From NCBI RefSeq assembly GCF_000023965.1, contig NC_013202.1, positions 1,470,001 through 1,502,000 on the forward strand: DNA of 32,000 bases. Direction: 5' to 3'. Both the position numbers and the translations under genes were made by a program. The notes below the pieces were generated by a model. The model saw only the letters and a program-made list of their open reading frames with translations. It ran no database searches and was not told the DNA's origin. Source of the stretch: Halomicrobium mukohataei DSM 12286 (lineage in GTDB: Archaea; Halobacteriota; Halobacteria; Halobacteriales; Haloarculaceae). Below, in pieces: positions 300 to 30,732 of this stretch (position 1 is its first letter; every line of letters starts with the position of its first letter).

Positions 300-364
300 A
301 CTCGAATAGTTGGGTTCGACGCTCTTGTATCTTCACCTATGGGTCTCGGACGACCGGTAGTGTC

Positions 365-445
365 GTACGGATTATTGTAGCGATGTACCGGTGATCGTCT
401 ACCCCGTGGCGACGATCGCCGGTACGCAACTACAACAAGCCGTAT
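365..445. repeat. Nested palindromic element, subfamily B, diverged copy (B3)
   Basis: GTACGGATTATTGTAGCGATGTACCGGTGATCGTC...GACGATCGCCGGTACGCAACTACAACAAGCCGTAT. The two arms are largely complementary. The termini and the TTGTAG..TACCGG..ATCG core match the copies at 11857-11938 and 14972-15010. It directly abuts element A1. Confidence 0.6.
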
Positions 446-446
446 C

Positions 447-526
447 ATACTGCCGGCTGTAAGTCTGTATAGAATTTCGCGACCGCATTGTCGCGAATAT
501 CTTGAAACAGTTACAGCCGGCAGTAT
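447..526. repeat. Nested palindromic element, subfamily A (A1), 80 nt
   Basis: Outer arms ATACTGCCGGCTGTAA (447-462) and TTACAGCCGGCAGTAT (511-526) are perfectly complementary. Inner arm pair is TTCGCGAC / GTCGCGAA. The last base is the first base of the symporter stop-codon complement. A second copy lies at 9349-9428. Confidence 0.85.
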
Positions 527-2100
527 CAGTCGCCGTCGACACCCGAGACGCTGTACAGGCCGGCGTCCTCGCCGGGGGACGCGCTCGTCACGAGCGAGAC
601 GCCGACGGTCAGGACCAGTCCCAGCGCCATGCAGACGACGCTGGCCGACCAGCCACCGAGGTAGCTGCCGGGCACGAACGGGAGGAAGACGCTGGCGAGG
701 TAGAACAGCTGCGAGCCGCCGACGCCGGCGTACATCCCCCAGCGGGTCGTCCGGGGCCAGTACAGCGCGACGATGACGGGCAGGGCCAGCTGGGCGAAGC
801 CGCCGAACGCGGTGTCGCCGATCTGGACGAGCGTTCCCGGCGCGTAGAGGCTGGCGACGAACGAGACCGTCGCGAAGACGACCACGCCAGCGCGGGCGAG
901 CAGCGTCTCGCGGTCGCGGTCGGAGTGAAGCGTGCGACCGACGGAGACGGCGACTGCGAGCAGGGATCGGCGGACGCGGTTCACCAGCGACGCGCGGTCC
1001 GGCAGCGTCGGCTCCTCCTCGGCGAGGTCGGTCACCGGTCGGTAGAGGTCGCGAGTGAGGTAGGAGGCGCCCGAGAGCAGCATCGAGTCGCTGGAGGACA
1101 TCATGGCGGCCAGCGCCGCGGCGACGACGGCCGCCGTGAACCACCCGGCGGTGTACTCGTTGAGCACCGCCGGGATCACGTTGCCGTTCTCCGGAACGGT
1201 GACGCCCAGGCCGGCGGCCCACGCGCCGAGCATGAACGCGGGGACGAACAGCAGGACCACCAGTACGGGCCACAGCGCCAGCGTCCGCTTGAGCACTTTC
1301 TGGGAGCGAGCGACGAAGAAGCGCTGGTTGATCTGGGGGAACATCGTCACGCCGAAGGCGATGGAAATCGCCGTCGAGAGGACGTACTCCGGCGTGTACA
1401 GCCCGCCGCCCAGTGCGAGGAACTCGGGGTTGGTCTCGGCCAGTCGGTCCGTCGCCGCCGCCGGGCCGCCGACCGCCGAGAGGATCCAGGCGACGGCCGC
1501 CCAGATCAGCCCGAGCATGACGATCCCCTGGAGCGTGTCGGTCCAGGCGACCCCGCGCATCCCCGAGACGGCGACGTAGACGATCATAAAGAGCGTGATG
1601 CCGCCGGCACCGACCCAGAACGGGACCGCGCCGTCGGTCAGTCCGACGACCGCCTGGCCGGCACCCTTCTGCTGGAGCATCACGTAGGGAAAGAGCCAGA
1701 AGAGACTGATCGCCGCCACGAGCCCGCGGAGGAGACGCGAGCCGAAGCGATCGCCCAGCATCTCCCCGAGCGTGACGTAGCCGTGGCGCTGGCCGACGAG
1801 CCACTGCTTGTACCCCAGCACGTACCAGAGGACGGCGAAGATGATCCCGTCCATCAGCCCCATCACCAGCAGCCACTCGGGTCCCTGCGCGAAGGTGAGG
1901 TTCGGGCCGCCAAAGAAGGTAAAGGCCGACAGCAGCGTCGCGAACGTCGTGAACAGGAGTACGACCGTGCCGAATGTCCGGCTGGCGAGGTAGTAGTCTT
2001 CCGCCGTGCGATCGGTCAGGCGGTAGGCGACGACGCCGATGGCCGCCGCCAGTACCATGTAGCCGCCGACGATGCCCAGCTGGATCGTCGTGTCAGCCAT
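526..2100 (-). CDS. Sodium:solute symporter (SSS) family transporter
   Basis: 524-aa ORF with about 13 hydrophobic segments. The N-terminus (...YYLASRTFG...FTFFGGPNL...) is typical of the SSS family (PutP/PanF/ActP-like). It is preceded by a small DUF3311-type gene with an 8-nt overlap, the usual pairing for this family. Confidence 0.9.
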   Translation of the reverse strand: MADTTIQLGIVGGYMVLAAAIGVVAYRLTDRTAEDYYLASRTFGTVVLLFTTFATLLSAFTFFGGPNLTFAQGPEWLLVMGLMDGIIFAVLWYVLGYKQWLVGQRHGYVTLGEMLGDRFGSRLLRGLVAAISLFWLFPYVMLQQKGAGQAVVGLTDGAVPFWVGAGGITLFMIVYVAVSGMRGVAWTDTLQGIVMLGLIWAAVAWILSAVGGPAAATDRLAETNPEFLALGGGLYTPEYVLSTAISIAFGVTMFPQINQRFFVARSQKVLKRTLALWPVLVVLLFVPAFMLGAWAAGLGVTVPENGNVIPAVLNEYTAGWFTAAVVAAALAAMMSSSDSMLLSGASYLTRDLYRPVTDLAEEEPTLPDRASLVNRVRRSLLAVAVSVGRTLHSDRDRETLLARAGVVVFATVSFVASLYAPGTLVQIGDTAFGGFAQLALPVIVALYWPRTTRWGMYAGVGGSQLFYLASVFLPFVPGSYLGGWSASVVCMALGLVLTVGVSLVTSASPGEDAGLYSVSGVDGD

Positions 2101-2377
2101 CGCGATTCACCTCCGGCGTCTCGGCCTCGACGCCGACGCCCCAGCCGTAGCGGGTGAACGCGTAGAAGGCGACCGACGCCAGCCCCATCCAGCCGACGTG
2201 CCACCACACCCACAGCGGCAGCCCGGCAGCGACGGTGCTGTCTCGCCAGAGGAACCACGGGACCGCCAGTGCCGCCACTGCGAGCGCCGCGAGTGCCCAC
2301 CCGAGCGCTTCGAAGCGACTGCGCGTCCAGTTCGAACCGTCCCACATCGTTGTGCTGGCTTGCAACTGGACTAACAT
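2093..2377 (-). CDS. DUF3311-like small membrane protein (symporter accessory subunit)
   Basis: 94-aa ORF with two TM helices. Its stop overlaps the symporter ATG. An alternative start at 2347 (MWDGSNW) is possible. Confidence 0.7.
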   Translation of the reverse strand: MLVQLQASTTMWDGSNWTRSRFEALGWALAALAVAALAVPWFLWRDSTVAAGLPLWVWWHVGWMGLASVAFYAFTRYGWGVGVEAETPEVNRDG

Positions 2378-2496
2378 AGAGGTAACGGCTATTCAATTCG
2401 GGAAATTGAAGAGGAATTCTGTTCGACCTGCCGTCGCGGGGGCGTCGGAAACGGCCGGCGACGGTCGGCGGTCGGGACCCGCGAGTTCGGCCCAAC

Positions 2497-2871
2497 GGGT
2501 AGTGTTCAGATAAGCAACTGCGTCAGTGGACTTGTAGACACCGAAAGCCCTCGTGCAGTTGCGGTCCCGGGACCCACGCTGCGCTCCGGTAGGTGCTTGC
2601 GCGGTCCGGGTTCCCGCAAGGGCCGGCCGGTGGAACCGGCCGGCTATAACGTGACGGCTCCGCCGTCACGCAGCACTCGCCCTTTCATCCGCCAGGGTTC
2701 AGACGATCAGATAGCCGATACCTGGCGGATGAAAGGGCGAGGCGCGGTCGGCGGTTCTGCGGCGGCACTATCCGAGCGTAGTGAGGATATCCGCCACAGA
2801 ACCGCCGAGCGGGCCGAGGGCTTTCGGTGCTTCACTTCCGCCACTCTCTATCTCTTATCTGAACACCGCCC
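2497..2871. other. 375-nt compound inverted-repeat element (candidate structured ncRNA or composite MITE)
   Basis: Terminal arms 2497-2514 GGGTAGTGTTCAGATAAG and 2854-2871 CTTATCTGAACACCGCCC pair at 16/18 (the two mismatches are not G-U). Subterminal arms 2539-2553 and 2815-2829 pair at 15/15. Internal hairpins: 21/21-bp stem 2676-2696/2721-2741; 14/15-bp stem 2751-2765/2791-2805; GCCGGCCGG-TGGAA-CCGGCCGGC; GTGACGGC-TCC-GCCGTCAC. Confidence 0.6.
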
Positions 2872-2918
2872 CGCAACGCGGCCGTAGCTATTTGGGTACA
2901 CGTCCGCAACGCCGACGC

Positions 2919-3656
2919 ATGCAGACCGCAATCCAGCTGTACACGCTCCGCGAGATCGACGGATCGATCCTCGACGTGCTCGCCCGCGTCGGTGACGCCG
3001 GCTTCGACGGCGTCGAGTTCGCCTATCGCGTCGACGAAGCGTCCACCGCAGAGATCCGTGAGGCCCTCGAAGACGCCGGTCTCACTGCCGTCGCCGCACA
3101 CGTCGGGATCGAGACCCTCGAAGCGGACCTCGACGGCGTGATCGAGACCGCGGAGGCGCTGGGCTACGAGGACATCGTCGTCCCGTGGCTCGATCCGGAA
3201 CACTTCGAGACGGTCGCGGCCGTCGAGGCGACGGCCGAACGACTCTCGGAGCTGGCCAGGGCGGTCGCGGACCGCGGGCTACAGTTGCATTACCACAACC
3301 ACGACCAGGAGTTCGCCGAGACCGACGAGGGCGTGGCCTTCGATCTGCTCGTCGAACGGTCCAGCGACGACCTCATGTTCGAGGTCGACGCCGGTTGGGC
3401 GCTGTACGGGGGCGCAGATCCCGTCGCTCTCCTCCACGAGTACGCCGACCGCATCTCGCTGGTCCACTTCAAAGACGTTCGCCTCGACAGCGAGGACGCC
3501 CCCCCGCTGGGCGAGGGCGACCTCGACGTCGACGCCGTCGCGACGGCCGCCCGGGAGATCGACGCCGAGTGGGCCGTCTTCGAGAACGACGAGCCCGACG
3601 ACCCCGTGACGGCGCTGGCAAACGGCGCGGACGTGCTCTCCGGTGCAGTCCGGTAG
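2919..3656 (+). CDS. Sugar phosphate isomerase/epimerase (xylose-isomerase-like TIM barrel)
   Basis: From the internal ATG, MQTAIQLYTLREI...GFDGVEF...HNHDQEF...VHFKD... matches the AP_endonuc_2 / xylose isomerase-like TIM pattern. The upstream part of the 2781 ORF lies inside the palindromic element and is not protein-like. Confidence 0.8.
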   Translation: MQTAIQLYTLREIDGSILDVLARVGDAGFDGVEFAYRVDEASTAEIREALEDAGLTAVAAHVGIETLEADLDGVIETAEALGYEDIVVPWLDPEHFETVAAVEATAERLSELARAVADRGLQLHYHNHDQEFAETDEGVAFDLLVERSSDDLMFEVDAGWALYGGADPVALLHEYADRISLVHFKDVRLDSEDAPPLGEGDLDVDAVATAAREIDAEWAVFENDEPDDPVTALANGADVLSGAVR

Positions 3657-3769
3657 ACGAGTCCGACCCACAGCCCGACGGGGACCGGTCGGCAGCTATT
3701 TCAGGCGGCCAATCGAACGTCTTTTCGACACGAATACGGGGTCGATTCCCCGGCAACTGGAATCCAGGA

Positions 3770-5155
3770 ATGCAGGACTCTACGAAATATCTCATCCACG
3801 CAGACTTTACCGCGAACGGCGTCGTCGAGCGCAACGACGTCGTCGGCGCAGTCTTCGGACAGACCGAAGGGCTGCTCGGCGACGAGCTCGACCTCCGGGA
3901 GCTACAGGAGGGGTCGAAAGTCGGGCGCGTCGACGTCGAAGTGACCTCCGAGGGGGGACAGTCCTTTGGCGAGATCACGATCGCGAGCGGACTCGACCGC
4001 GTCGAGACGGCGATCCTCGCGGCGTCGTTGGAGACGATCGAGCGGGTCGGACCGTGCCGTGCGACCGTCACCGTCACGGACCTCGAAGACGTCCGGCACG
4101 CGAAGCGTCGCGAGGTCGTCGAACGAGCCACGGAGCTGCTCGCGGACTTCGAGGCCGAGGCGATCACCTCCCACGACATCGTCGAAGAGGTCCGCCAGCG
4201 CCTCCGCGTCGCGGACATCACCGAGTACGAGGGACTGCCCGCCGGCCCACGCGTCGCCGAGAGCGACGCCATCATCGTCGTCGAGGGGCGAGCCGACGTG
4301 CTCCAGTTGCTCCAGTTCGGGATCAAAAACGCCGTCGCCGTCGAGGGGACGGACGTGCCCGAGGCGATCGCCGACCTGAGCCGCGAGCGGACCGTCACCG
4401 CGTTCCTCGACGGCGACCGCGGCGGCGAGCTGATCCTGAAAGAGCTGGCACAGGTCGGTGCCGTCGATCACGTCGCCTTCGCGCCGGCCGGCACGTGCGT
4501 CGAGGACCTCTCGCGCTCACAGATTCTCGCGGCGCTACGGGACAAGGTCCCCTACGAGGCCGTCGACGAGGGAAGCCCGGCCCCGGTCGCGGCGACGCCG
4601 GACGCGTCCGAGGACGAACCCGACGAGCCCGACGAGCCCGACGAGCCCGACGAGCCCGACGAGCCACGTGCGGTCACCTCCGGCGGCCGAGACGTCGACA
4701 CCGACGTCGGGACCACCGACGCGGCGTCGGCACCGTCCGAGACGGTCGAACCAGTGTCCCCCGAGACCGACAGCGAGAGCGCCGGCCGCCAAGCGTCGCC
4801 GGACGCCGTCGAACGCTCTCCCGGCGAGCCCGACGACGGCCAGGACGCGAGCGACGACGCGTCGCCGTCGACGGTGGCGGCACACGCACAGGCAGTCGTC
4901 GCCGAAGGTACCGGGACCGTCCGGCTGCTCGACGACGAGGCGAGCGTTCTCCGTGACGGTCCCGCGACCGAGGCGTTCGCGCTCGTCGAGGCGGCCGATC
5001 CGGTCCCGGCGGCGGTCGTCCTCGACGACACGCTCTCCCAGCGACTCCTCGACGTGGCTGCCCAGCGGGGCGTCGACGAGATCGTCGCCCGACAGACCGG
5101 CGAGTTCGTCAAACAGCCGACGACGGTCCGCGTGCGGACGATCGAGGACCTGTAG
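3770..5155 (+). CDS. dnaG: DNA primase DnaG (archaeal Toprim type) with an acidic low-complexity insert
   Basis: MQDSTKYLIHADFTANGVVERNDVVGAVFGQTEGLLG... and the Toprim core IIVVEGRADVLQLLQFGIKNAVAVEGT...FLDGDRGGELILKEL are canonical archaeal DnaG. The ATG at 3770 is in frame with ORF 3185..5155, whose upstream part is Arg-rich off-gene translation. Confidence 0.92.
   Translation: MQDSTKYLIHADFTANGVVERNDVVGAVFGQTEGLLGDELDLRELQEGSKVGRVDVEVTSEGGQSFGEITIASGLDRVETAILAASLETIERVGPCRATVTVTDLEDVRHAKRREVVERATELLADFEAEAITSHDIVEEVRQRLRVADITEYEGLPAGPRVAESDAIIVVEGRADVLQLLQFGIKNAVAVEGTDVPEAIADLSRERTVTAFLDGDRGGELILKELAQVGAVDHVAFAPAGTCVEDLSRSQILAALRDKVPYEAVDEGSPAPVAATPDASEDEPDEPDEPDEPDEPDEPRAVTSGGRDVDTDVGTTDAASAPSETVEPVSPETDSESAGRQASPDAVERSPGEPDDGQDASDDASPSTVAAHAQAVVAEGTGTVRLLDDEASVLRDGPATEAFALVEAADPVPAAVVLDDTLSQRLLDVAAQRGVDEIVARQTGEFVKQPTTVRVRTIEDL
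4613..4666 (+). repeat. 9-bp tandem repeat x6 (GACGA[A/G]CC[C/A]) encoding (DEP)6 inside dnaG
   Basis: Direct reading: GACGAACCC, then GACGAGCCC x4, then GACGAGCCA, all in frame. Confidence 0.9.
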
Positions 5156-5566
5156 TTACCGCTCGAACACCAGACCGTCGGCGTCGTCGTAGTGGTCCGG
5201 TATCTCCTCGACGACGGTGAATCCGAACCCGCGGTAGAACGCGTGGACGCGCCCGGCGTCGGCCCGCGCGGTGAGCCGTACCGTGTCGATTCCGTGCTCG
5301 GCCAGTCGGTCCAGCAGTGCCCGCATCAGGCGGCTTCCGTTGCCCTCGCCCTGTCTGTCGGGCGCGATCGCGAACTCCGCGACGTAGGCGACCTCGTCGT
5401 CGGGGACGGCGAGCGCGTAGCCGATGGGTTCGTCGACGGTCAGGACCAGGACCAGCGACGGCTCGCCGAGCGACAGCTCCAGTAGCTCCGGCCACGGGTC
5501 CGACAGCGTCGCGGCCTGAATGCGTCGCAGCCGGGGCCAGTCGCCGGGCTGGCCCTCGCGGATCAT
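5156..5566 (-). CDS. GNAT family N-acetyltransferase (RimI-like)
   Basis: 136 aa starting MIREGQPGDW.... Contains the acetyl-CoA motif AIAPDRQGEGNGSRLM, typical of GNAT. Its ATG overlaps the stop of the upstream gene (ATGA at 5563-5566). Its stop directly abuts the dnaG stop (convergent). Confidence 0.85.
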   Translation of the reverse strand: MIREGQPGDWPRLRRIQAATLSDPWPELLELSLGEPSLVLVLTVDEPIGYALAVPDDEVAYVAEFAIAPDRQGEGNGSRLMRALLDRLAEHGIDTVRLTARADAGRVHAFYRGFGFTVVEEIPDHYDDADGLVFER

Positions 5567-6909
5567 AGCACGAGCTGGAAGGCGAGTCCGCCGGCCACCG
5601 CCGCCGCCAGCGTGGCCAGCAGGTTCACGCTCTGGTTGCCGACCGTCTCGCCCTCGACCGTCGCCCCGAGGAAGCTGTCGACCAGCATGCCGAGGAAGCC
5701 GGCACCGAGGATCACGAGCGCGCCGACGGCTCCGATGTCCGCGAACAGCCCGCCAGCGATGCCGGCGACGATGCCCGAGCCGACCAGCCCGGCGACGGCA
5801 CCCTGCCAGGTCACGCCGCCGTCCGTGCCGGGTTCGACGCGCCGGAGCGTCGTGATCAGCCGCGGATTGTCGTAGAGGCCGCCGAACTCGCTGGAGAAGG
5901 TGTCGCTCATCGCGGCGGCGACCGCGCCCGCGAAGGCGTACAGCAGCAACATCGGATCGATGCCGGTGTGGCTCGGGCTCGCCGCCGCGGCGAGGACGGC
6001 CACGAGCGCGACGATGGAGTTGGCGAGGACGTTGCCGCTGCCCCGAGCGCCCTCGTTTTCCTCGGCGATGCCGCGATCGAGTTTCTCGTCGTAGCGGAAC
6101 TTCGTCGCCAGACCACCGAGACCGAAGAAGGTGATGAGCATGGCGAACCACCGGAAGTCACCGAGGACGATCGTCAGGAGACCGAGGAAGACGCCGGTGA
6201 GCATCCCCGGCAGCGACGCCGTATCGAGCGCGTAGGAGACGTAGCCGAGGACGACCGTCACGCCCAGCGCGAGGGCGATACGCCCCGCCGTCACGTCGTG
6301 CAAGGGGAGATCGGAGAACAGCCACAGCAACAGCCCGATCGAGAACAGCACCAGCGGGTCGTCACGCTCGAACAGGACCGCTCGCAGCAGCGCCGCCAGC
6401 AGAGCGCCGCTGATCGCGTAGAACGCGAGCAGCGCGAGGAACTGACTCGTCAGCGGTCGGCCGGCCAGCATCGCCGAGACGGCGCTCCCGGCGGTCGCCG
6501 CCAGGAACCCCGCCGTCACGAACCCGGCAGTCGCGGCTACCGCGTCGGCGGTCACGCGCTCGACCAGCCGCGTGCCGAGATTCCCGCCGGCCAGCACGAA
6601 CACGCTGGCGACGAACACCCACATCGGGAGCCCGAACTGGAGGGCGAGCAGCGAGAGCCCGGCGATCGAGAGGGCGAAGCCAGCGAGCCCGTACAGGGTG
6701 TGGTCCTCGCGGTCGCCCGGCCGGGCGAACAGCTCGAACAACGGACCGTCGTCGACGACGGTCAGTGCGAGCGCCGCGATCCCCACGAACGGAGCGATCG
6801 CGAGCGCCGTCGCCAGCCACGGCGGTTCGACGCCGTCGACGAGGGGCACGAGGAGCGCCACGGCCCCGACCAGCGCGAACCCGACGGCCCGCCGGACAGC
6901 AGATGTCAC
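5563..6909 (-). CDS. DUF92 (TMEM19 / VTE6-like, COG1836) polytopic membrane protein
   Basis: The C-terminal half (...GNVLANS...AAMSDTFSSEFG...VTWQGAVAGL..DSFLGAT.E) fits the DUF92 signature. A GTG start at 6909 is preferred; the ORF-track ATG at 7053 would overlap the divergent gene at 7046. Confidence 0.7.
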   Translation of the reverse strand: MTSAVRRAVGFALVGAVALLVPLVDGVEPPWLATALAIAPFVGIAALALTVVDDGPLFELFARPGDREDHTLYGLAGFALSIAGLSLLALQFGLPMWVFVASVFVLAGGNLGTRLVERVTADAVAATAGFVTAGFLAATAGSAVSAMLAGRPLTSQFLALLAFYAISGALLAALLRAVLFERDDPLVLFSIGLLLWLFSDLPLHDVTAGRIALALGVTVVLGYVSYALDTASLPGMLTGVFLGLLTIVLGDFRWFAMLITFFGLGGLATKFRYDEKLDRGIAEENEGARGSGNVLANSIVALVAVLAAAASPSHTGIDPMLLLYAFAGAVAAAMSDTFSSEFGGLYDNPRLITTLRRVEPGTDGGVTWQGAVAGLVGSGIVAGIAGGLFADIGAVGALVILGAGFLGMLVDSFLGATVEGETVGNQSVNLLATLAAAVAGGLAFQLVL

Positions 6910-7045
6910 GTCACGCTGGTACCGTAGAGAGGCACTTACCCTTTCCGAACTCGGCGACCGGCCGTCGGAGAGCGGTCGACGGGTGACCCGACACGAGGTC
7001 TCGCCGATCCGAAGAATTACGCCGGCCGACGCGCTACGGCCCAGC

Positions 7046-7654: not shown

Positions 7655-7874
7655 TCCGAGTGTTGGCAGACGAACGGAGTGAGTCTCGCGGGGTTTTGGC
7701 CGGCCAGACCCGGCCAGAGACTGATCTACACGAGCGTTTGTTCCGATCAGAGAAGGTTGAAGGACGTTTTTGCGCGAGTAGTGCGCGAAGATCCCGCATA
7801 CCATGTGAACGGGCCTACGGCCCGTGAACAGATGGTGCGCCTCCGGCGCACCCGAAGCGGAAAACAGTGGGTGC

Positions 7875-8789
7875 TCAGTCCGCGACCACGTCGACGTCGT
7901 CTTCGACGGCCTCCCGTTCCTGGCGCGTCAGCGCGTCGCGGAAGCGACCGAGGATCCGCCGGGCCTGTGACGCCTCGGGGCCGAGAGCCCGGACGAGCGT
8001 CAGCGCGCGGCGAGCGCGCGTGCGACGCCAAGACTCGGCGCGGTGCTCGTAGGTCCGGATCGCCCGCAGGAAGTCGATCTTCCGGAATTCGGGCCAGTAG
8101 GGGGCACAGAAGTAGACCGCAGCCTCGTTGCCCTTGGCGTGCCAGGGGAGGAAATTCGAGGTCCGCTCGTCGCCGCCGGTCCGGACGATCAGGTCGACGT
8201 CGCGGGTCGGACCCTCGTAGAGTCGCCCCTCGATGGTGTCGGCGTCGACCGACTCGGGATCGAGTTCGCCGTCGTCGACCGCCCGGGCGATGTCCCGGGT
8301 CGCGCCGAGCAGTTCCGCGCGGCCACCGTAGGCCAGGGCGACGTTCAACTGGAGTCGGTCGTAGCAGGCAGTCCGGCTCTCGGCGTAGTCGATCGCATCG
8401 CGGACGCGCTCGGGAAGCCGCTCAGTTTCGCCGATCGCCCGGATCCGGACCTCGTTATCGTGGACGCGGTCGGTATCGGCGAACGCCCTGAGCTTCCGTT
8501 CGATGAGGTCGAAGAGGTGTTCCTGCTGCTCTTTGGGCCGATCGAAGTTCTCCGTCGAGAAGGTGTACAGCGTCACTTCGTCGACAGCCAGTTCGTCACA
8601 CCAGTGCAGGAGTGCCTCCGTCGTCTCCGCCCCTTCGGTGTAGCCCGCCGTGGTGTCGGCACCCTGTTCGCGGGCGTACCGGCGATTGCCGTCCTGGATG
8701 ACGGCGACGTGGCTGGGTGCGTCCGAGAGCTCGCGCTCGAGGAGACGTTCGTACGCGGTCTGTGCGAGGTCACGCGCCCGCTGTAGCAT
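7875..8789 (-). CDS. uppS: cis-prenyltransferase, catalytic (tritrans,polycis-undecaprenyl/dolichyl diphosphate synthase)
   Basis: HVAVIQDGNRRYA, TLYTFSTENF.RP, DLIVRTGGDERTSNFLPW and YFCAPYWPEF are canonical UppS motifs. The ATG at 8789 (MLQRARD) is preferred over the TTG at 8804 used by the ORF track. Confidence 0.9.
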   Translation of the reverse strand: MLQRARDLAQTAYERLLERELSDAPSHVAVIQDGNRRYAREQGADTTAGYTEGAETTEALLHWCDELAVDEVTLYTFSTENFDRPKEQQEHLFDLIERKLRAFADTDRVHDNEVRIRAIGETERLPERVRDAIDYAESRTACYDRLQLNVALAYGGRAELLGATRDIARAVDDGELDPESVDADTIEGRLYEGPTRDVDLIVRTGGDERTSNFLPWHAKGNEAAVYFCAPYWPEFRKIDFLRAIRTYEHRAESWRRTRARRALTLVRALGPEASQARRILGRFRDALTRQEREAVEDDVDVVAD

Positions 8790-8949
8790 CGTGTCATTCG
8801 ACAAACTCGACGGGCATGAGTTTTGCGATCTGTCGCCCGCCAGCGGCCGCCCCGTCGGGTCGTTCGACCGACCGCCCGAATTCTGTTCCGTGAGATCGGT
8901 CGGAATAACCGGTGGGTTTTAATAGCAGAACCACCATTGGATACGTGCA

Positions 8950-9144
8950 ATGGCGACCGGTACGGTTGACTTCTTCAACGACACTGGCGGTTACGGGTTT
9001 ATCGACACAGAAGACGCCGACGAGGACGTCTTCTTCCACATGGAAGACATCGGCGGTCCTGACCTCGAAGAGGGCCAGGAAGTCGAGTTCGACATCGTGC
9101 AAGCGGACAAGGGTCCGCGTGCGGAAAACCTCACCCGGCTGTGA
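8950..9144 (+). CDS. csp: Cold-shock protein (CspA family), copy 1
   Basis: 64 aa. MATGTVDFFNDTGGYGFI...VFFH carries the RNP1/RNP2-like cold-shock-domain motifs. A TTTTAATAG TATA-like box lies about 30 nt upstream. Confidence 0.92.
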   Translation: MATGTVDFFNDTGGYGFIDTEDADEDVFFHMEDIGGPDLEEGQEVEFDIVQADKGPRAENLTRL

Positions 9145-9149
9145 TCACA

Positions 9150-9344
9150 ATGGCGCAAGGTACTGTAGACTTCTTCAACGACACGGGCGGTTACGGATTC
9201 ATCGACACGGAGGACGCTGACGACGACGTGTTCTTCCACATGGAGGACATCGGCGGTCCCGACCTCGAAGAGGGTCAGGAAGTCGAGTTCGACATCGTGC
9301 AAGCGGACAAGGGTCCGCGAGCCGAGAACCTGACGCGACTGTAA
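9150..9344 (+). CDS. csp: Cold-shock protein (CspA family), copy 2
   Basis: 64 aa from the ATG at 9150. It differs from copy 1 at 2 residues and starts 5 nt after the copy 1 stop. Confidence 0.9.
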   Translation: MAQGTVDFFNDTGGYGFIDTEDADDDVFFHMEDIGGPDLEEGQEVEFDIVQADKGPRAENLTRL

Positions 9345-9348
9345 GCTC

Positions 9349-9428
9349 ATACTGCCGGCTGTAACTGTGTCAAGATATTCGCGACCACGGGGTCGCGAAA
9401 TTCCGTACAGACGTACAGCCGGTAGTAT
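9349..9428. repeat. Nested palindromic element, subfamily A (A2), 80 nt
   Basis: Arms are ATACTGCCGGCTGTAA (9349-9364) and GTACAGCCGGTAGTAT (9413-9428). Its internal 48 nt match the reverse complement of the A1 interior at 42/48. It begins 5 nt after the csp stop codon. Confidence 0.85.
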
Positions 9429-9611
9429 CACGCTGCAGTCGAGTTCTCCGCTTTCGATCGCGACAGCGGCGACACGAGCCGCCGCCACGTACGTCCGACG
9501 ACCGAAGACGTTCGGGAGCAGTGACTCTCGAAACCGCCGGAGACGAACGATACGGCGGGGTCGCAGCCGCGAATCGTGAGTCGTATTAGTGCCGACAGAC
9601 GAGTGAGTCGT

Positions 9612-10016
9612 ATGGGCGCGGAGACACTCGACGAAGACCTCTATCGACGCACGAAGGCACTGCTCGAACCCGGCGAGATCGAACTGAACGGGACGATCGT
9701 CCACACCGACCTCGACGGGCAAGACGACATCGAGATGATGGAGACGACCCTCGAAGCGGGCAACGTCATCGCCGAGCACGCCGGCCACGACCCGAAAGAC
9801 ACCTACGTCTACTCGGGCAACGACGACGCCGACTTCTCTTCGAACCAGCACCAGGGGCTCACCATCGACGGCGAGGAGTTCGTCTGGGAGTGCCAACAGC
9901 TCCTCCGTGACGGGAGCTTCGACATCGTGTTTTACTACGAGGCCAGCGCCGATCAGGCCGCGATCCTCGACGACCTGCGGGACGCGGGATACGAGGTCAC
10001 GGGCGTCGAAGGGTAG
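9612..10016 (+). CDS. Acidic hypothetical protein
   Basis: ORF with high GC3 and acidic composition (MGAETLDEDLYRRTKALLEPGEIELNGT...). I recognise no motif. The start is taken at the first ATG (9612) within ORF 9576..10016. Confidence 0.55.
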   Translation: MGAETLDEDLYRRTKALLEPGEIELNGTIVHTDLDGQDDIEMMETTLEAGNVIAEHAGHDPKDTYVYSGNDDADFSSNQHQGLTIDGEEFVWECQQLLRDGSFDIVFYYEASADQAAILDDLRDAGYEVTGVEG

Positions 10017-10017
10017 G

Positions 10018-11736
10018 CTACGACTCGCTCAGGTCTTCTCGGACGAAGAACGTCGTCGCCCCGCCGGACGCACGGAACTCGTAGCTCTCGGCCGTGTACC
10101 CCGACAGCCGGGATTCGAGCGCCGTCGCGTTGTCGCCCCGTGCGACGACGACCGGCGGGCGATCGGCTTCGATCGTCGCGGGATCGGCCGCACACGACGC
10201 GTTCAGGTCGTGTTTCGCGAGGTACCACTGTAGGGGCAACAGCTCTCCGAGATCGCCACAGCGTGGCTCCTGTGGACTGACGCCGCGCGGGGCCGCGAGC
10301 TCCGAGCCGTAGATCACCACGTCCGTCCCCTCGGAGTCGGTCTCGGCGGCAACGGCCAGCACCGGCCGGAAGTCGTCGGTCGGCTGAGCGTACTGGACGA
10401 GGTTGTTGTCTGCCGCGGCCGGCGATTCGTAGACGAGCCCCCCGGCCGTCACGGCGACCTGGGCGGTGAGGACGAGGAGCAAGACGCCGACCAGCGAGGC
10501 CGACACCGTGTCGTCCCCGTCGAAGGCGGTTCGGCCCAGCCGGTAGAGGTACGCCAGCCCGACGGCCGCCGGGAGCGCCAGTGGCACCAGCGCGTTGACC
10601 GTGATCCAGGCCCCGTAGATGTCGGTCCCCAGCGGGTAACCGACCACCGAGACGAACCCCCAGTAGCCGGCAAAGAGCACGACGGGACGCGGACGGACCG
10701 CGCCGTACCGCTCGATCAGGAACCCGCCGACGGCCAGCACCGACAGCGGCAGGGCAGCCACGAGCAGCGTTTCGAGGAACCGTCCGAGAAAGCAGGCGTA
10801 GCCGTCGACGAGGTTGTCCTTGTGACAGCCCGGATCGGAGGTGCCGCCGAACCAGTACTCGAAGCCCTCGGTGAGATCCGCGACCGTGGTGTCGACTACG
10901 GCCGGGAGCGAACTCGGGTGTCCGATCGCGTACCAGAGTCCGACGCCGTCCGCGGGGTTGCGCGGCGCGAAGAAGAAGAAGACGACCAGTCCGAAGACGG
11001 CGACGGCCCCGACGAGGTGGCCGGCGTAGCGACCGACGCCGGCCGGCCCGAGCGATCGACCACGGGAGACGAGCCGGCCCCAGTAGCGGCTCGCAACGTC
11101 GAAACCGCGTTCCTCGCCCCGCTCGGCGAAGAAGAGCTGGTCGACGACGAGCGCGGTCGCGCCGACCCAGACGACGGCGTAGACGACGGTGTTCTCCTTT
11201 GCCGCGAGCGCGAGCCCGAACAGCGCGGCGACGCCGTAGACGTAGCGGACCCGTCTCGTGTCGTAGGCCCGCACTGCGAGACCGAAGGCGACGAAGACGA
11301 AGCCCGCGACCAGCAGCGTGCTCCGGAAGAACCGCGAGTAGTACAGCAAGACCGGATTGGCCGCCAGCACGACCGCCAGCGCGACCACTTCGCTGTCACG
11401 GAGGTGTTCGCGAAAGAGCAGTGCCGACAGCGGCAACAGACCGCCGAAGACCGCGACGGGCAACCGCATCACTGCATCGCCCGTCCCGAGTACCTGGAAC
11501 AGGGCGGCGTCGGCGTACTGGACCAGCGGTCCGTGGACGATGTAGCGATAGGAGATCGACCCCGTCTCGGCGTACTCCAGCGCCCAGTAGGCCACTCTCC
11601 CCTCGTCGAAGTGTGCGATGCGTCCCCCCAGGTCGACGAGTCGCGCCACCAGCGCGAGCACCGTCACTGCGACCACTCCCGTCAGCGCGGGGTCGGCGCT
11701 CGCACGCGCCCGCCAGTCGATGTCGCCAGCAACCAT
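10018..11736 (-). CDS. GT-C fold membrane glycosyltransferase-like protein (ArnT/PMT-like; resembles the TIGR03663 / Agl23-type family)
   Basis: 572 aa. The N-terminus (HFDEGRVAYWA...GPL..Y) is followed by about 10 or more TM helices and a C-terminal soluble domain, an architecture typical of the GT39/83-like family. The family name is from memory. Confidence 0.7.
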   Translation of the reverse strand: MVAGDIDWRARASADPALTGVVAVTVLALVARLVDLGGRIAHFDEGRVAYWALEYAETGSISYRYIVHGPLVQYADAALFQVLGTGDAVMRLPVAVFGGLLPLSALLFREHLRDSEVVALAVVLAANPVLLYYSRFFRSTLLVAGFVFVAFGLAVRAYDTRRVRYVYGVAALFGLALAAKENTVVYAVVWVGATALVVDQLFFAERGEERGFDVASRYWGRLVSRGRSLGPAGVGRYAGHLVGAVAVFGLVVFFFFAPRNPADGVGLWYAIGHPSSLPAVVDTTVADLTEGFEYWFGGTSDPGCHKDNLVDGYACFLGRFLETLLVAALPLSVLAVGGFLIERYGAVRPRPVVLFAGYWGFVSVVGYPLGTDIYGAWITVNALVPLALPAAVGLAYLYRLGRTAFDGDDTVSASLVGVLLLVLTAQVAVTAGGLVYESPAAADNNLVQYAQPTDDFRPVLAVAAETDSEGTDVVIYGSELAAPRGVSPQEPRCGDLGELLPLQWYLAKHDLNASCAADPATIEADRPPVVVARGDNATALESRLSGYTAESYEFRASGGATTFFVREDLSES

Positions 11737-11856
11737 TACCGGGGGAGAGAGAGTCCACCGTTAAAGAGCTAGTCATCGATCAAAACCGATCTAAAGGACG
11801 GCCGGCACGTTTCGCTCGTCTCGCCCCGCGCTACTCGCGTGTCGTTCGCTTCGCTC

Positions 11857-11938
11857 ATACGGACGGTTGTAGGCGTTTACCCAGTCGACCGCACGACGGC
11901 GTGCGGTCGATCTGGTAAAGACCTACAACTTTCCGTAT
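11857..11938. repeat. Nested palindromic element, subfamily B (B1), 82 nt
   Basis: Outer arms are ATACGGACGGTTGTAGG and CCTACAACTTTCCGTAT. Inner arms are TTTACCCAGTCGACCGCAC and GTGCGGTCGATCTGGTAAA. It lies 55 nt downstream of the carA stop. Confidence 0.85.
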
Positions 11939-11993
11939 CACTCCCGCTCGCAATTCCGAGGCCCGCCGCTCCTGCGATTCGCGACGCGCCTCG

Positions 11994-13040
11994 CTACTCT
12001 TCTGCCAGCGCCAGCACGTCGTCGAAGAAGTCCAGCGAGTCGTTCGGGCCGGGGTTGGCCTCCGGGTGGTACTGGCGGGTGATGATGTCGAGGTCGTCGT
12101 TTTCCAGTCCCTCGGGCGTGTCGTCGTTGACGTTGACCTGTGTTACGTCGAGTTTCTCGCCGGGATCGGCGACCGTGTAGCCGTGGTTCTGGGTGGTCAT
12201 GACGACCTGCCCGCTGCGCAGGTCGCGAACGGGCTGGTTGACGCCGCGGTGGCCGAACTCCATCTTCTCGGTGTCGCCACCCAGGGCGTTGGCGACGACC
12301 TGCTGGCCCAGACAGATGCCAGCGAGGGGGACGTCGCCGACCTTCTCGGCGACGAGTTCGTTGGCCTGCTCGAAGTTCACCGGGTCGCCGGGGCCGTTCG
12401 AAATAAACAGGACGTCCGGGTCGAGTTCGTCGACCGTCTCGGGGGTCGTGTCGTAGGGCAGGACGTGGACGGTGGCGTCGCGTTCGACCAGCGACGAGAC
12501 GATCGATCCCTTCGCGCCACAGTCGACGAGCGCGACCGTCGGTCCGTCGCCCGCCTCGTTGTGGGTCTCGCGTTCGTCGACGCTGACCTGTGCACCGATG
12601 TCGGTGTGGTCGGACATGTGCTCACACTGGGCGAGCTGTTCGAGGGCCGCTTCCTCGCTGGCGTCGGGACCGGCCGAGATGCCACACTTCATCGCGCCCT
12701 CGTCGCGGATCTCCGTGACGATGTCGCGTGTGTCGAGGTGGTCGACGGCCGGGACGCCCTCGCTTTCGAGCCACTCGGCCACGTCGTCGGTCATCTCGCG
12801 AGCGACGGCGGCACGGGGGTGGACTCGATCGGACTCGAACCGCTCTTCGCGGACGCCGTAGTTGCCGATCAGGGGATAGGAGAACGTGAGGACCTGCTCT
12901 TCGTAGGACGGGTCGGTCAGACTCTCCTCGTAGCCCGTGTACGCGGTGGTGAATACCAGTTCGCCACGTGCGGTGCCCGGTGCGCGCGAACGTGCCTCGA
13001 CGACACGCTCACCTTCGATCGCGACGTATGCGTCAGCCAT
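11994..13040 (-). CDS. carA: Carbamoyl-phosphate synthase small (glutaminase) subunit
   Basis: 348 aa. FTTAYTGYEESLTDPSYEEQVLTFSYPLIGNYG, the GATase catalytic GICLGQQ and the HRGVNQPV / NHGY motifs are present. Confidence 0.95.
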   Translation of the reverse strand: MADAYVAIEGERVVEARSRAPGTARGELVFTTAYTGYEESLTDPSYEEQVLTFSYPLIGNYGVREERFESDRVHPRAAVAREMTDDVAEWLESEGVPAVDHLDTRDIVTEIRDEGAMKCGISAGPDASEEAALEQLAQCEHMSDHTDIGAQVSVDERETHNEAGDGPTVALVDCGAKGSIVSSLVERDATVHVLPYDTTPETVDELDPDVLFISNGPGDPVNFEQANELVAEKVGDVPLAGICLGQQVVANALGGDTEKMEFGHRGVNQPVRDLRSGQVVMTTQNHGYTVADPGEKLDVTQVNVNDDTPEGLENDDLDIITRQYHPEANPGPNDSLDFFDDVLALAEE

Positions 13041-13091
13041 TACGAGATACGTACATAGTTCGGGCTGATAAGGGTTGCTTTCGAAGTCGAG

Positions 13092-13106
13092 TTACGATTT
13101 TCGTAA
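13092..13106. promoter_or_regulatory. Perfect palindrome TTACGA-TTT-TCGTAA in the carA / lrp divergent intergenic region (candidate Lrp operator)
   Basis: Read directly. It lies 37 nt upstream of the lrp ATG and 52 nt upstream of the carA ATG. Function is inferred only from position. Confidence 0.3.
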
Positions 13107-13142
13107 TCCTCAAGTAGGGACCGCGACAAGCGTCACATCTCA

Positions 13143-13556
13143 ATGGACGACCTCGACCGCGAGATCATGGGCATCCTCCGGCGGGACTCCCGGACGCCGT
13201 ACACGGAGATCGCCGACGAGGTGGGAACCTCCGAGGGAACCGTCCGAAACCGCGTCGAGCGGCTGATCGACGAGGGGGTCATCGAGCGCTTCACCATCGC
13301 TACGCAGACGGGCAACGTCAAAGCGATGATCGAGGTCAGCGTCGACGTCAACGTGGACACGCACGCGGTCACCGACCTCATGGCCGAATGGCCCGAAGTC
13401 GACTTCGTCTGGCAGGTGTCGGGAGAGGAGGACATCGTACTCGTGGTCGACTGTGCCGACACCGGCGGCGTCAACGAACTGATCACACAGGCCCGAGAGC
13501 TGGAGGAAGTCGTGAGCACGAAGACGAGGTTAATCTTGGACGAACGGCTTGGGTGA
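13143..13556 (+). CDS. Lrp/AsnC family transcriptional regulator
   Basis: 137 aa. N-terminal HTH (LDREIMGILRRDSRTPYTEIADEVGTSEGTVRNRVERL) plus a C-terminal RAM/AsnC_trans_reg domain. Confidence 0.9.
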   Translation: MDDLDREIMGILRRDSRTPYTEIADEVGTSEGTVRNRVERLIDEGVIERFTIATQTGNVKAMIEVSVDVNVDTHAVTDLMAEWPEVDFVWQVSGEEDIVLVVDCADTGGVNELITQARELEEVVSTKTRLILDERLG

Positions 13557-13578
13557 TCCACAGGGAACCAAGCCGTTC
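13542..13578 (+). terminator. 11-bp perfect hairpin spanning the lrp stop codon
   Basis: GAACGGCTTGG (13542-13552) pairs with CCAAGCCGTTC (13568-13578). No long T-run follows, so a terminator role is uncertain. Confidence 0.25.
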
Positions 13579-13600
13579 ATTCTGAGATTTCCTGATGAGG

Positions 13601-13785
13601 CTGATTCTCGACGAGCGACTCGGCTGAGGAAGCGAAGCGAGTCGCTGATTGGAGAATCCGCCGAGGAGAGACTGATTCTCGACGAGCGACTCGGCTGAGG
13701 AAGCGAAGCGGGTCGCTGATTGGAGAATCCGCCGAGGAGAGACTGATTCTCGACGAGCGACTCGGCTGAGGAAGCGAACCGCCGA
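13601..13785. repeat. 71-bp tandem repeat, 2 full units plus 1 internally deleted unit; each unit is itself a palindrome
   Basis: Units start at 13601, 13672 and 13743. Units 1 and 2 differ at 1 nt. Each unit reads GATTCTC-GAC-GAGCGACTCG-[loop]-CGAGTCGCT-GATTG-GAGAATC. Confidence 0.9.
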
Positions 13786-13925
13786 TTCTCAGTTAGGTAG
13801 CCTGAGGGGCGGGTACGAGCCGGTACCAGCGGTCCGGACGAGAATCGTCGATTCCAGTGGCCGGCCGTTCCCGGTGAGCAGGAACGCACAATAGCGTTAA
13901 TGACTCCCGAATAGAACTCCCGAGT

Positions 13926-14972
13926 GTGCCCCTCGAAGACGCTCACGGACGGGCGGTCACCGGTATCCGTGTGTCACTGACCGACCGGTGTAACTTCGAT
14001 TGCGTCTACTGCCACAACGAAGGTCTGGGCGACACGCGGGGGCCGATGGATCCACAGGACGAGGAGATGACAGCCGACGAGGTGATCCGGCTCCTCGATG
14101 TCGTACGTGAATTCGGCGTCGAGACCGCGAAATTCACGGGCGGAGAGCCGATGCTCCGCCAGGATCTCGTCGAGATCGTTCGCCGCGCTCCCGACGGCAT
14201 GGAGGTTTCGATGACGACCAACGGAACGTTCCTGCCGGATCGGGCCGCCGCTCTCGCAGACGCCGGGCTCGAACGCGTCAACGTCTCTCAGGACGCGGTC
14301 GATCCGGATGCGTTCGCCGAGCTAACACGGAGCGGTGCGTACGACAAGGTCATCGAGGGCGTCGAAGCGGCCCTCGGGGCCGGACTTGCGCCGGTCAAGC
14401 TCAACATGGTCGTGATGGAACCGACCGCCGGGTACGTCCCGCAGATGGTCGATCACGTCGCGGCCAACGACGGGCTCCAGCTCCAGCTCATCGAGTACAT
14501 GCCGGAGATCGCCGGTCACCCCGAGTGGGCGATCGACATCGATCGGGTCCACGACTGGCTGGCCGACCGGGCCGACCGCGTCGAACGCCGCGAGATGCAC
14601 GGCCGACGACGTTACTACGTCGGCGAGGATGCCGACGCGGAGACGCCGACGATAGCGGCGGGTGACCCCGACGGTCCGGCGGCCGAGTACGGGATGGTCG
14701 AGATCGTCGATCCGGTCGAGAACGCGGAGTTCTGTGCGAACTGCCACCGCGTTCGGGTGACACACGACGGGCAGTTCAAGGGGTGTCTCAACCGCCACGA
14801 CGACCACCGCGCGATGGGCGAGATGTCCCGTGAGGAGATCCGGACGGCCTTCCGAGAGACAGTCGCAAGTCGCGTCCCCTATTACGGGGAGTATCTCGTC
14901 GAGGAAGACGGCGAGTGGGTTCGAAACGACCGCTACGTCGACCAGCCGATCTCGACGGCTGACGACGACTGA
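13926..14972 (+). CDS. moaA: GTP 3',8-cyclase MoaA (radical SAM, molybdenum cofactor biosynthesis)
   Basis: GTG start. It carries [14 protein letters not shown] (CX3CX2C), FTGGEPMLR and the C-terminal [11 protein letters not shown]....CL cluster motif. Confidence 0.9.
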
Positions 14973-15010
14973 TACGGACGGTTGTAGTTCTTTACCGGAT
15001 CGACGGCAGT
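14972..15010. repeat. Half-copy of palindromic element subfamily B (B2)
   Basis: ATACGGACGGTTGTAG is identical to the first 16 nt of B1. The following TTCTTTACCGGATCGAC matches the B1 inner arm. No right arm is present. The first base is the last base of the moaA TGA. Confidence 0.55.
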
Positions 15011-30231: not shown

Positions 30232-30732
30232 CATCATTCCACAATTCAGGAGCTCACGCAAATACACGGTGATCTTTTAATTAACTTCCCTACAATTGCA
30301 GTTCGTAGGACAGCTGGAGCAGATTATAAAACAAGCATGAATAATTTTTATGGGAATGCCTCATGGGAAGCCGCAAACAGTGATGATGAATTTCGGACAA
30401 TCTATATGTCCCGTCTTGCTGAAACCGGTCGACCGGTTCAAGAATATATACCAGTTCGCAGTGGAGGACAATTCTTCTATGATATGATCTACTGCACAAG
30501 ACAAACCAAAGGCGGGAGTCCCTATATACAGGTCTTAGAAGACATGAAGGAGAAAATCGAACAACTGACCGGTGAAGATGTAGAGCGGATTCTTCGGTTT
30601 ATGCGAGGAGAACAGACTAGTCTGGATCTTTTCGATCAGGGAGACGACCAACAGACTGGTTTAGGAGACTTCATGGATTAGCTAAGTCCATACTCTTACT
30701 AGGCCTCGGAGGATACGGTCAATCAAGTAATC

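Follow-up and report, generated by a model that had tools for sequence, protein, structure and literature searches.

Why should a single stretch of haloarchaeal DNA carry five palindromes of about 80 nt, most of them directly at gene 3' ends? The first-pass annotation of this 32,000-nt stretch of Halomicrobium mukohataei DSM 12286 (hereafter the window) suggested REP/MITE-like mobile palindromes, hairpins that stabilise or terminate transcripts, or binding sites for a Y1 transposase. We conclude, with a probability of roughly 85%, that the five palindromes are copies of a non-autonomous DNA transposon (MITE) family that is dispersed across Halobacteria. The family is apparently undescribed so far, and its kind, a classical MITE moved in trans, is already known.

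The five loci do form one family and lie where they had been placed, with sequences as described (Table 1). The element proper is one base shorter at either end, however, running from TAC to GTA over 78-80 nt: the inverted ATAC...GTAT ends noted before are real, but their outer A and T belong to a T-N-A duplication. The terminal inverted repeats span about 15 nt with the consensus TAC(T/G)G(N)CGG(C/T)TGTA, and the interior is likewise palindromic. With up to three mismatches allowed, the terminal 15-mer occurs 16 times in the window, compared to 4.7 expected, a number that none of 100 shuffles reached. As claimed, the two subfamily termini (A and B) are identical at 12/16 positions. A1 is 89% complementary to A2 over 83 nt, compared to 76% identity in direct register, and the two copies are therefore inverted relative to each other, as previously noted. 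The arms measure 37 nt in A1 (81% complementary) and 39 nt in B1 (82%), and B2 resembles B1 at 80% over 40 nt, with a terminus score of 24.2. B3 had been taken for a diverged copy of B1; it belongs to the same family but represents a third subfamily, marked by a terminus of its own, and is not simply a decayed B1. This terminus, TACGGATTATTGTAG, was also found on a Halomicrobium plasmid and at two scanned genomic loci, and close relatives of B3 reside on the Halomicrobium plasmid NZ_CP039376.1 (30021-30099 and 94583-94661).

Table 1. Features of the palindrome family in the window and polymorphic sites on related plasmids.
Replicon	Position	Strand	Feature	Details
Window	363-365		B3 left target-site duplication	TCG at present, with one decayed base relative to TCA; partner TCA 445-447
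Window	366-444	+	B3, full 79-nt MITE copy, third subfamily	termini TACGGATTATTGTAG ... CTACAACAAGCCGTA; nhmmer match
Window	445-447		TCA common to B3 (right duplication) and A1 (left duplication)	
Window	448-525	+	A1, full 78-nt A-type MITE copy	termini TACTGCCGGCTGTAAG ... TTACAGCCGGCAGTA; hairpin z -10
Window	526-528	-	TCA, A1 right duplication	minus-strand TGA stop of the sodium:solute symporter gene
Window	526-2100	-	Sodium:solute symporter gene	PF00474, 524 aa
Window	9347-9349		TCA, A2 left duplication	2 nt past csp TAA stop (9342-9344)
Window	9350-9427	-	A2, full 78-nt A-type MITE copy	orientation opposite to A1; hairpin z -8.7
Window	9428-9430		TCA, A2 right duplication	
Window	11855-11857		TCA, B1 left duplication	
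Window	11858-11937	+	B1, full 80-nt B-type MITE copy	termini TACGGACGGTTGTAGG ... CCTACAACTTTCCGTA; hairpin z -10.2
Window	11938-11940		TCA, B1 right duplication	
Window	14970-14972	+	TGA, moaA stop and B2 left duplication	moaA 13926-14972
Window	14973-15007	+	B2, truncated left end of a B-type copy	similarity clear over ~26-35 nt; right arm absent
NZ_CP039376.1	5979-6057		Filled site	
NZ_CP039376.1	113134-113212		Filled site	
NZ_CP039376.1	213044-213122		Filled site	
NZ_CP044130.1	12941-13018		Filled site	

Each of the four full copies forms a single long hairpin whichever strand is folded, with z between -5.5 and -10.8 and 0/200 shuffles as stable; for B3, z was -5.5 (plus strand) and -7.8 (minus strand). 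The half copy B2 shows no special folding (z -0.02). Across the entire window, no Rfam family matched at its gathering threshold. In an alignment of 90 diverse copies, columns 1-14 and 65-78 were invariant or near-invariant and the outer stem pairs were retained in 85-90 copies, with the exception of one pair that switched between C-G and U-A in 35. Compensatory changes were found at 10 of the 17 consensus pairs, in both outer and inner stems (e.g. C-G 50 vs U-A 35). That such changes uphold the palindromy of the entire element counts against the MITE reading, as ordinary MITE models do not demand it. A sister family of ~76 nt, with identical TAC...GTA ends but TA duplications, was moreover seen nested inside some MITE copies.

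The search for further copies that the first-pass annotation proposed returned many. A two-ended pattern with 22 fixed bases, for which we estimated ~5 chance matches in 596 Gb, recovered at least 120 stretches; all the matches listed were haloarchaeal and covered more than 12 genera, including Haloarcula, Halomicrobium, Halovenus, Halostella, Haloplanus, Halostagnicola, Halosimplex, Halapricum, Natronomonas, Salinirussus and Salinirubellus, as well as MAGs. BLAST with A1 identified 35 places on 9 haloarchaeal plasmids, and the 0.96 Mb of haloarchaeal DNA examined contained 162 MITE places. The copies are 76-90 nt long, mostly 78-80 nt without the duplication, which is far too short for any transposase, so that the reported absence of coding capacity holds. 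B1 is 100% identical to several Halomicrobium katesii copies, which points to recent activity. Such a distribution is hard to reconcile with vertically inherited, syntenic UTR parts, that is, with conserved regulatory palindromes instead of mobile DNA. Even though H. katesii harbours, in a similarly stacked layout, a copy that is 95% similar to the A1 beside the symporter-type gene end, near-identical copies occur at many unrelated loci of that same species, the genes next to the element number in the hundreds, are unrelated and come from more than 12 genera, and insertions are polymorphic between related plasmids. The dispersed distribution and the filled and empty sites described below refute this explanation, whose probability we consider negligible.

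Mobility of the elements is recorded in their flanks. The earlier statement that target duplications are lacking proved wrong, as a 3-bp direct repeat flanks each full copy, in the case of B3 as TCG/TCA. Among the matches listed, 116 of 129 copies carried identical 3-mers on both flanks (TCA 58, TGA 49, TTA 6, TAA 3); where T.A was present on both sides (n=121), the middle base agreed in 116 copies, compared to 52 by chance. Within the same set the target was often C-TNA-G, with C at -1 in 77/129 (60%) and G at +1 in 74/129 (57%). A profile search, in which the flanks were not fixed by the search pattern, added 33 copies, 17 with identical flanks and the remainder truncated or different by one base. 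Between the related Halomicrobium plasmids NZ_CP039376.1 and NZ_CP044130.1 we found four filled/empty pairs: each empty site consisted of exactly one TGA or TCA, the filled sites carried two copies of the triplet, and all four were annotated stop codons. The stop of a GH2 gene represents a re-hit site, as one of the two plasmids has a B-type copy there and the other an A-type copy. Dispersal, inverted-repeat ends, TNA duplication and filled/empty sites thus bear out the suggested MITE-like mobile palindrome.

The same data speak against REP-like or IS200/IS605-derived palindromes, which a Y1 (HUH) RAYT or TnpA enzyme would insert as single-stranded hairpins beside a short motif without duplication. 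The elements are indeed extragenic, palindromic and capable of strong hairpins, the B-type terminus contains a GTAG that resembles the REP tetranucleotide, a Halomicrobium plasmid carries a TnpB gene, and haloarchaea commonly contain palindrome-associated elements derived from IS605 (PMC3119063). However, matched repeats together with single-triplet empty sites imply staggered double-strand cleavage of the target and not Y1 single-strand insertion. Moreover, the elements end in true terminal inverted repeats, a feature absent from IS200/IS605 elements and whatever derives from them. The IS200/IS605-derived PATEs have subterminal hairpins and insert 3' of a tetra- or pentanucleotide; with inverted repeats, and a triplet found once in empty and twice in filled sites, we rejected an assignment to them. 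REP units have a conserved 5' tetranucleotide and, at 20-40 nt, are far shorter than this single ~80-nt palindrome; the length together with the duplication likewise excluded the elements from the REP/RAYT group, and no RAYT gene was seen in the haloarchaeal DNA examined. As neither system makes target duplications, both proposals fail, and we regard a Y1-driven origin as very improbable.

How, then, does a MITE come to sit on stop codons? The reported distances to the stops hold for the called genes (symporter, csp TAA, moaA TGA, and carA with its stop at 11994-11996 on the minus strand). B1 follows the carA stop at a distance of 54 nt and precedes the start of the next gene by 119 nt. When distances were tabulated, as the first-pass annotation had proposed, a clear positional bias emerged, with a spike at 0 (29 + 24 copies) and every other distance seen at most twice; on the plasmids, 12 of 26 copies lie on RefSeq-annotated stops. 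Depending on which of three gene-calling settings was used, 37-46% of copies had a duplication that shares a stop codon, compared to 6-22% expected (p <= 8e-9). All four TNA triplets are stops on one strand, either as TGA and TAA or as their complements TCA and TTA, and insertion at T-N-A triplets, which duplicates them, would be why many copies lie exactly on stops. Since the duplication rebuilds the triplet, as shown at the polymorphic plasmid sites, the protein remains unchanged after such an insertion. In a compact genome of 65% G+C, a considerable proportion of the TNA triplets that can be hit without harm would be stop codons, and copies would accumulate there. Abutting copies such as B3 and A1 would arise when one stop codon is hit more than once, and the TCA common to these two is consistent with insertions in succession into one stop codon; the same stacked layout was observed ahead of the GH2 gene's stop codon on NZ_CP039376.1. 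Taken together, the TNA target and the harmless, rebuilt stop account for most of the placement. The excess at stop codons was still ~2-fold over the most liberal triplet-based null, and some extra target preference or selection therefore has to be assumed.

A rival explanation is a host function at transcript 3' ends, with the hairpins acting primarily as stabilisers, terminators or processing sites and owing their position to selection for that function and not to a preference of insertion. Strong hairpins directly past many stop codons and stems upheld by compensatory changes would suit such a role, as would a weak orientation bias of A-type copies at stops (19 vs 8, p = 0.05), and similar roles have been reported for bacterial palindromic MITEs such as the Correia elements. 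However, both orientations occur at stops, and several plasmid copies lie far from any stop, between tandem genes or in divergent promoter regions. The hairpins are not followed by a T-run, and a scan for terminator-like sites, which covers archaeal signals only crudely, flagged none of the full copies, whose flanks contain at most T3. Many copies are decaying or truncated, and near-identical plasmids can differ at a site in nothing but the presence of a copy. Given that position at stops follows directly from TNA duplication, the terminator or stabiliser proposed earlier is not needed to explain the placement and finds no support in the sequence; we consider it unlikely as the primary explanation.

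For the MITE, the 3-bp duplication and precise empty sites led us to infer staggered-cut transposition in trans. A transposase supplied in trans would bind both ends, make cuts staggered by 3 nt at a T-N-A target, mostly TCA/TGA and preferably within C-TNA-G, and join in the element, and repair of the stagger would leave the TNA duplication. We tentatively consider a DDE transposase of the IS5/PIF-Harbinger kind, acting in the manner of IS1031, IS427 or ISL2, the most likely enzyme. In these three groups the duplicated sequence is TNA or TA within a CTAG-like target, and a TNA duplication within such a target is what we found. Ends of the IS5 family typically begin GG/GA; because the MITE termini begin TAC instead, the assignment derives solely from target similarity. 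The sole IS of the window (29298-30231) belongs to the IS5 family (NF033579) and was considered as a partner, but was rejected for its unrelated ends (GGCCTTGTTTAGACGC) and 9-bp duplication (CATCATTCC). Its homologues in the haloarchaeal DNA examined were of the same type, and the ends of neither matched the MITE termini. No autonomous element with these termini was found in ~1.4 Mb of haloarchaeal DNA that included both plasmids with polymorphic insertions in full.

Several known systems invite comparison. REP/RAYT elements and IS200/IS605 PATEs are similarly extragenic, hairpin-forming palindromes often near gene 3' ends, but they lack inverted repeats in the transposon sense as well as duplications, and use Y1 single-strand chemistry. 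The short mobile repeats (SMRs) of Haloquadratum walsbyi (SMR-A/B, HqIRS40-43, HqIRS55) are 80-110 bp long and end in conspicuous inverted repeats that match those of no known transposon. They occur in many copies, with insertions specific to individual strains, and no mobilising enzyme has been described for them; they are reported to cause no target duplication, and SMR-A elements insert into the palindromes of IS605-type elements (PMC3119063). Judged from the SMR descriptions, our family resembles them in its haloarchaeal hosts, size, inverted terminal repeats, copy number and polymorphic insertions but duplicates TNA and is inserted at stop codons and into intergenic DNA. Correia (NEMIS/CREE) elements of Neisseria and ERIC/IRU (MITEEc1) elements of enterobacteria are also palindromic, intergenic MITEs, of ~100-150 nt, with inverted-repeat ends, a short TA-containing duplication and no transposase of their own, often co-transcribed with neighbouring genes as hairpins. 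They differ in being bacterial, in their 2-bp TA duplication and in their documented RNA-processing effects, and we know of no report that they coincide with stop codons. With IS5/PIF-Harbinger MITEs (Tourist-type elements such as mPing, and those derived from IS1031, IS427 or ISL2), whose targets are CWCTTAGWG for PIF and CTAG for the IS5 group, the differences lie in the TAC instead of GG/GA termini, the TCA/TGA instead of TTA/TAA targets and a single palindrome over the entire 78-80 nt. Shared with them are the short, non-coding structure with ~15-nt inverted repeats, a T-N-A duplication of 3 bp bounded by C and G, many copies with presence/absence polymorphism and, probably, mobilisation in trans.

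The palindromic elements of the window are a real MITE family. All five loci picked out by the first-pass annotation are present with the sequences it described, and A1 (447–526) and A2 (9349–9428) do lie in opposite orientations, being 89% complementary over 83 nt compared with 76% identity in the direct register. The termini had been given as ATAC...GTAT, but their outermost A and T lie outside the element, as alignment of the flanks yields TCA-TAC...GTA-TCA in A1, A2 and B1; B3 lies between TCG and TCA, while the half copy B2 carries TGA on its left side. Within the window (~65% G+C), the terminal 15-mer occurred 16 times with up to three mismatches (4.7 expected). Each of the four full copies forms one long hairpin whichever strand is folded (z-scores −5.5 to −10.8), with internal palindromes of 81–82% complementarity and arms of 39 nt (B1) and 37 nt (A1); no special folding was seen for the half copy (14972), and no Rfam family matched the window at the gathering threshold. 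Gene positions are those called on the same region in reverse (L001).

Using a two-ended pattern with 22 fixed bases (~5 chance matches estimated), we scanned 185,579 species genomes and obtained at least 120 stretches, 100% of which were haloarchaeal among the matches listed, from at least 12 genera as well as MAGs. At least 19 loci were found in Halomicrobium katesii, and length was tightly kept among the copies listed (78–82 nt including two flanking bases). A profile made from the scan copies recognized 162 places in 0.96 Mb of haloarchaeal DNA, and BLAST with A1 against plasmids identified 35 places on nine haloarchaeal plasmids (Halomicrobium, Haloarcula, Haloplanus and Natribaculum); viral contigs contained no element matches. 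Among the matches listed, the closest to the window's elements came from Halomicrobium. At the five loci themselves, the near-identical contigs all either stop within B1 or have the same insertions. Two of these, independent short-read assemblies of near-identical strains (L002 and L003), both break in B1 (window 11911); the repeat fragments assemblies.

Among the matches listed, 116 of 129 copies had identical 3-mers on both sides (TCA 58, TGA 49, TTA 6, TAA 3). Of these flanks, the search pattern had fixed just the A on the left and the T on the right; the free positions were nonetheless T on the left in 122/129 and A on the right in 127/129, and the middle base was identical in 116 of 121 copies, compared with 52 expected by chance. 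Seventeen of the 33 copies found by the profile only, where no flank base was fixed, likewise had identical TNA triplets, the rest being truncated or differing by one base. With C at position −1 in 60% and G at +1 in 57% of the 129 copies, the target reads C-TNA-G. The complete sequences of two related Halomicrobium plasmids carry 14 (NZ_CP039376.1) and 12 (NZ_CP044130.1) copies. When the 250-nt flanks of each element were mapped across the two plasmids, four sites proved to hold an element in one plasmid and to lack it in the other, with a single TGA or TCA at each empty site, as in acaccgccTGA[element]TGActgcgcgc versus ACACCGCC-TGA-CCGCGCGC. A TA duplication of the IS630/mariner type is thereby ruled out for this family, since the empty sites lack TA. 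The remaining plasmid copies were common to both plasmids or reduced in one to remnants of 20–26 nt. Near-identical copies within Halomicrobium suggest that the system is currently active.

Any TNA triplet reads as a stop codon on one of the two strands, and this target accounts for the non-random placement at gene 3' ends that the first-pass annotation had pointed out. All four polymorphic plasmid sites are annotated stop codons, so that the insertions leave the proteins unchanged. With a crude gene caller based on G+C at the third position, one copy of the duplication coincided precisely with the stop of an ORF that looked coding in 52 of 151 full copies; distances to the stop peaked at 0 (29 + 24 copies), with at most two copies at any other distance. 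In the RefSeq annotation, 12 of the 26 plasmid copies sit on stop codons, and some others lie in divergent promoter regions or between tandem genes. Against a null in which insertion was allowed at any intergenic or stop-codon TGA/TCA, 37–46% of copies were on stops versus 6%, 13% and 22% expected at three gene-calling settings (p ≤ 8e-9), and the excess was still about 2-fold over the most liberal form of this triplet-based null. As the C...G context is commoner at stop codons than at intergenic sites and about half of the intergenic DNA is 5' regulatory, target preference together with purifying selection can probably explain most of the excess; active targeting of gene 3' ends may contribute. 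Element orientation was unrelated to TCA versus TGA and, with respect to the gene, showed a bias of borderline significance (19 vs 8, p = 0.05).

Some sites appear to have been used repeatedly. At the stop codon of a GH2 glycosidase, one plasmid carries a B3-type copy and the other an A-type copy, and a degenerate A-type remnant persists upstream of the copy in the first plasmid. Window 363–528 has the same stacked layout: B3 and A1 share TCA 445–447, and the final TCA serves as stop codon of the symporter gene. The likeliest origin of such abutting copies is a series of insertions, each at the gene-proximal copy of one triplet. Nested A-type copies had inserted at TAA within the ...TTGTAA terminus of B-type copies, which indicates that the elements are able to target one another's ends.

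Among 90 diverse copies of the A type, the terminal 14 nt on each side were nearly invariant, and the RNAalifold consensus consisted of an outer and an inner stem with 17 pairs. Compensatory double changes were present in 10 of these pairs and in both stems (for example, C-G 50 vs U-A 35, and C-G 53 vs G-C 16). Co-variation of the termini would be expected if both served as a common binding site for a transposase; co-variation of the inner stem is left unexplained by a simple MITE model. A terminator role, one of the functions proposed earlier, is unsupported, as no T-run follows the hairpins, and the Y1/REP option was rejected.

A 3-nt TNA stagger inside C...G is known from the IS1031, IS427 and ISL2 groups of IS5 and from eukaryotic PIF/Harbinger elements. 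Judging from this signature, the partner transposase could be of the IS5/PIF-Harbinger kind, to which we assign a probability of roughly 0.4. No autonomous element with the family's ends was found in 1.4 Mb of haloarchaeal DNA. A position-weight scan for orphan termini returned just truncated or nested MITE ends, and a search for 16-nt inverted repeats 0.6–3.5 kb apart with matching TNA flanks gave nothing convincing, its best candidate (L004, 5157–7730) encoding a methyltransferase. All-against-all clustering of 2217 ORFs revealed no multi-copy protein, and phmmer with E. coli IS5 InsH (an approximate sequence) found no match. The transposase of the window's own IS5-family insertion sequence matched IS903/ISH1-like relatives only in a phmmer search, and the unrelated ends and 9-bp duplication of this insertion sequence rule it out as the partner. 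The insertion sequence sits inside a low-G+C stretch (28000–32000), whose 46–56% compared with ~65% elsewhere points to foreign or integrated DNA.

Features in the window and in other haloarchaeal stretches (L-numbers)
Feature	Stretch	Position	Strand	Details
A1, A2	Window	448–525; 9350–9427		A-type
B1	Window	11858–11937		B-type
B3	Window	366–444		Third subfamily
B2	Window	14973–15007		B-type, left end only
IS5-family insertion sequence, complete	Window	29298–30231		16-nt inverted ends GGCCTTGTTTAGACGC / GGGCGTGTTTAGACGC; 9-bp duplication CATCATTCC
DDE transposase of this insertion sequence, 284 aa	Window	29326–30180	minus	Pfam DDE_Tnp_1; NCBIfam NF033579, 207 bits
Second family, ~76 nt	L085	5197–5272; 2834–2909		
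Second family, ~76 nt	L039	706–771; 3136–3211		
Second family, ~76 nt	L051	5075–5149		
A-type nested inside B-type	L106; L107; L035	940–1045; 5640–5745; 960–1100		
Longer variants, 90–110 nt	L014; L088; L035	2333–2442; 917–1024; 323–412		
200-nt unit, tandemly duplicated	Window	8948–9347		88% identity
Two cold-shock-domain genes	Window	8950–9144; 9150–9344		64 aa each
71-nt tandem repeat	Window	13597–13809		3 copies (100%, 97%, 65% partial)
Run of 9-nt units	Window	4592–4667		(GACGAGCCC)n

Other repeats were also observed in the window. The duplicated 200-nt unit carries the two cold-shock-domain genes, with A2 directly after the second. The 71-nt repeat lies between an AsnC-family regulator gene and moaA. 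The copy number of this repeat varies between close strains: the near-identical contig L002, drawn from a different data set, lacks two of the units and is 142 nt shorter at this point. The 9-nt units encode an acidic Asp-Glu-Pro repeat within a 461-aa ORF (3770–5155).

A second palindromic family of ~76 nt reads TA|TA-C(G/T)GGTCGACAG ... CTGTCGACCCG-TA|TA and appears to duplicate TA; copies of the TNA family contain two nested members of it. Since it shares with A-type elements the TAC...GTA termini and the inner module GAATTCGCC...GGCGAATATCT, it may be their sister family, and the two would parallel the TA-versus-TNA split among IS5 groups and PIF/Harbinger. The longer variants keep the family termini and TGA flanks around unrelated, non-palindromic interiors, and the ~15-nt ends alone seem to be needed for membership.

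A wider reading, which we consider unlikely, is a haloarchaeal superfamily comprising the TNA-duplicating A, B and B3 types and the TA-duplicating sister that shares their inner hairpin module. Instead of a conventional multi-copy IS, its transposase would come from a gene present in few copies and possibly domesticated, comparable to RAYT for REPs; gene 3' ends or stop codons would be actively preferred as a safe haven, and the element-wide hairpin would itself be selected, either because it aids transposition or because it acts on the 3' ends of mRNAs. The failure to find a partner IS in the 1.4 Mb, the residual stop-codon excess together with the four polymorphic insertions, and the compensatory changes in both stems are all compatible with it.

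Many odd hairpins next to stop codons in Haloarculaceae genomes and related ones are accounted for by the MITE family, and the annotated starts or ends of some genes extend into elements (for example, plasmid CDS 94428–94628 and 144684–145154). With a 3-bp TNA as target, stop codons become landing pads that repair themselves; this is a clean example from nature of the way in which a transposon can multiply to high copy number almost cost-free in a genome that is compact and dense in genes. Many 3' UTRs also acquire a strong hairpin through these insertions, raw material for archaeal mRNA-end regulation, and with its transposase in hand the system could be turned into a small insertion tool for archaea. 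In the literature searched, we found no description of the family and no paper with its termini. In a 2024 automated census, the MITE-richest archaeal genomes were those of Haloarculaceae and Halovenus (PMC11602168), and these elements were probably already counted there in bulk, without characterisation. The short mobile repeats of Haloquadratum are alike in size and orphan status but differ, by their published description, in lacking target duplications (PMC3119063).
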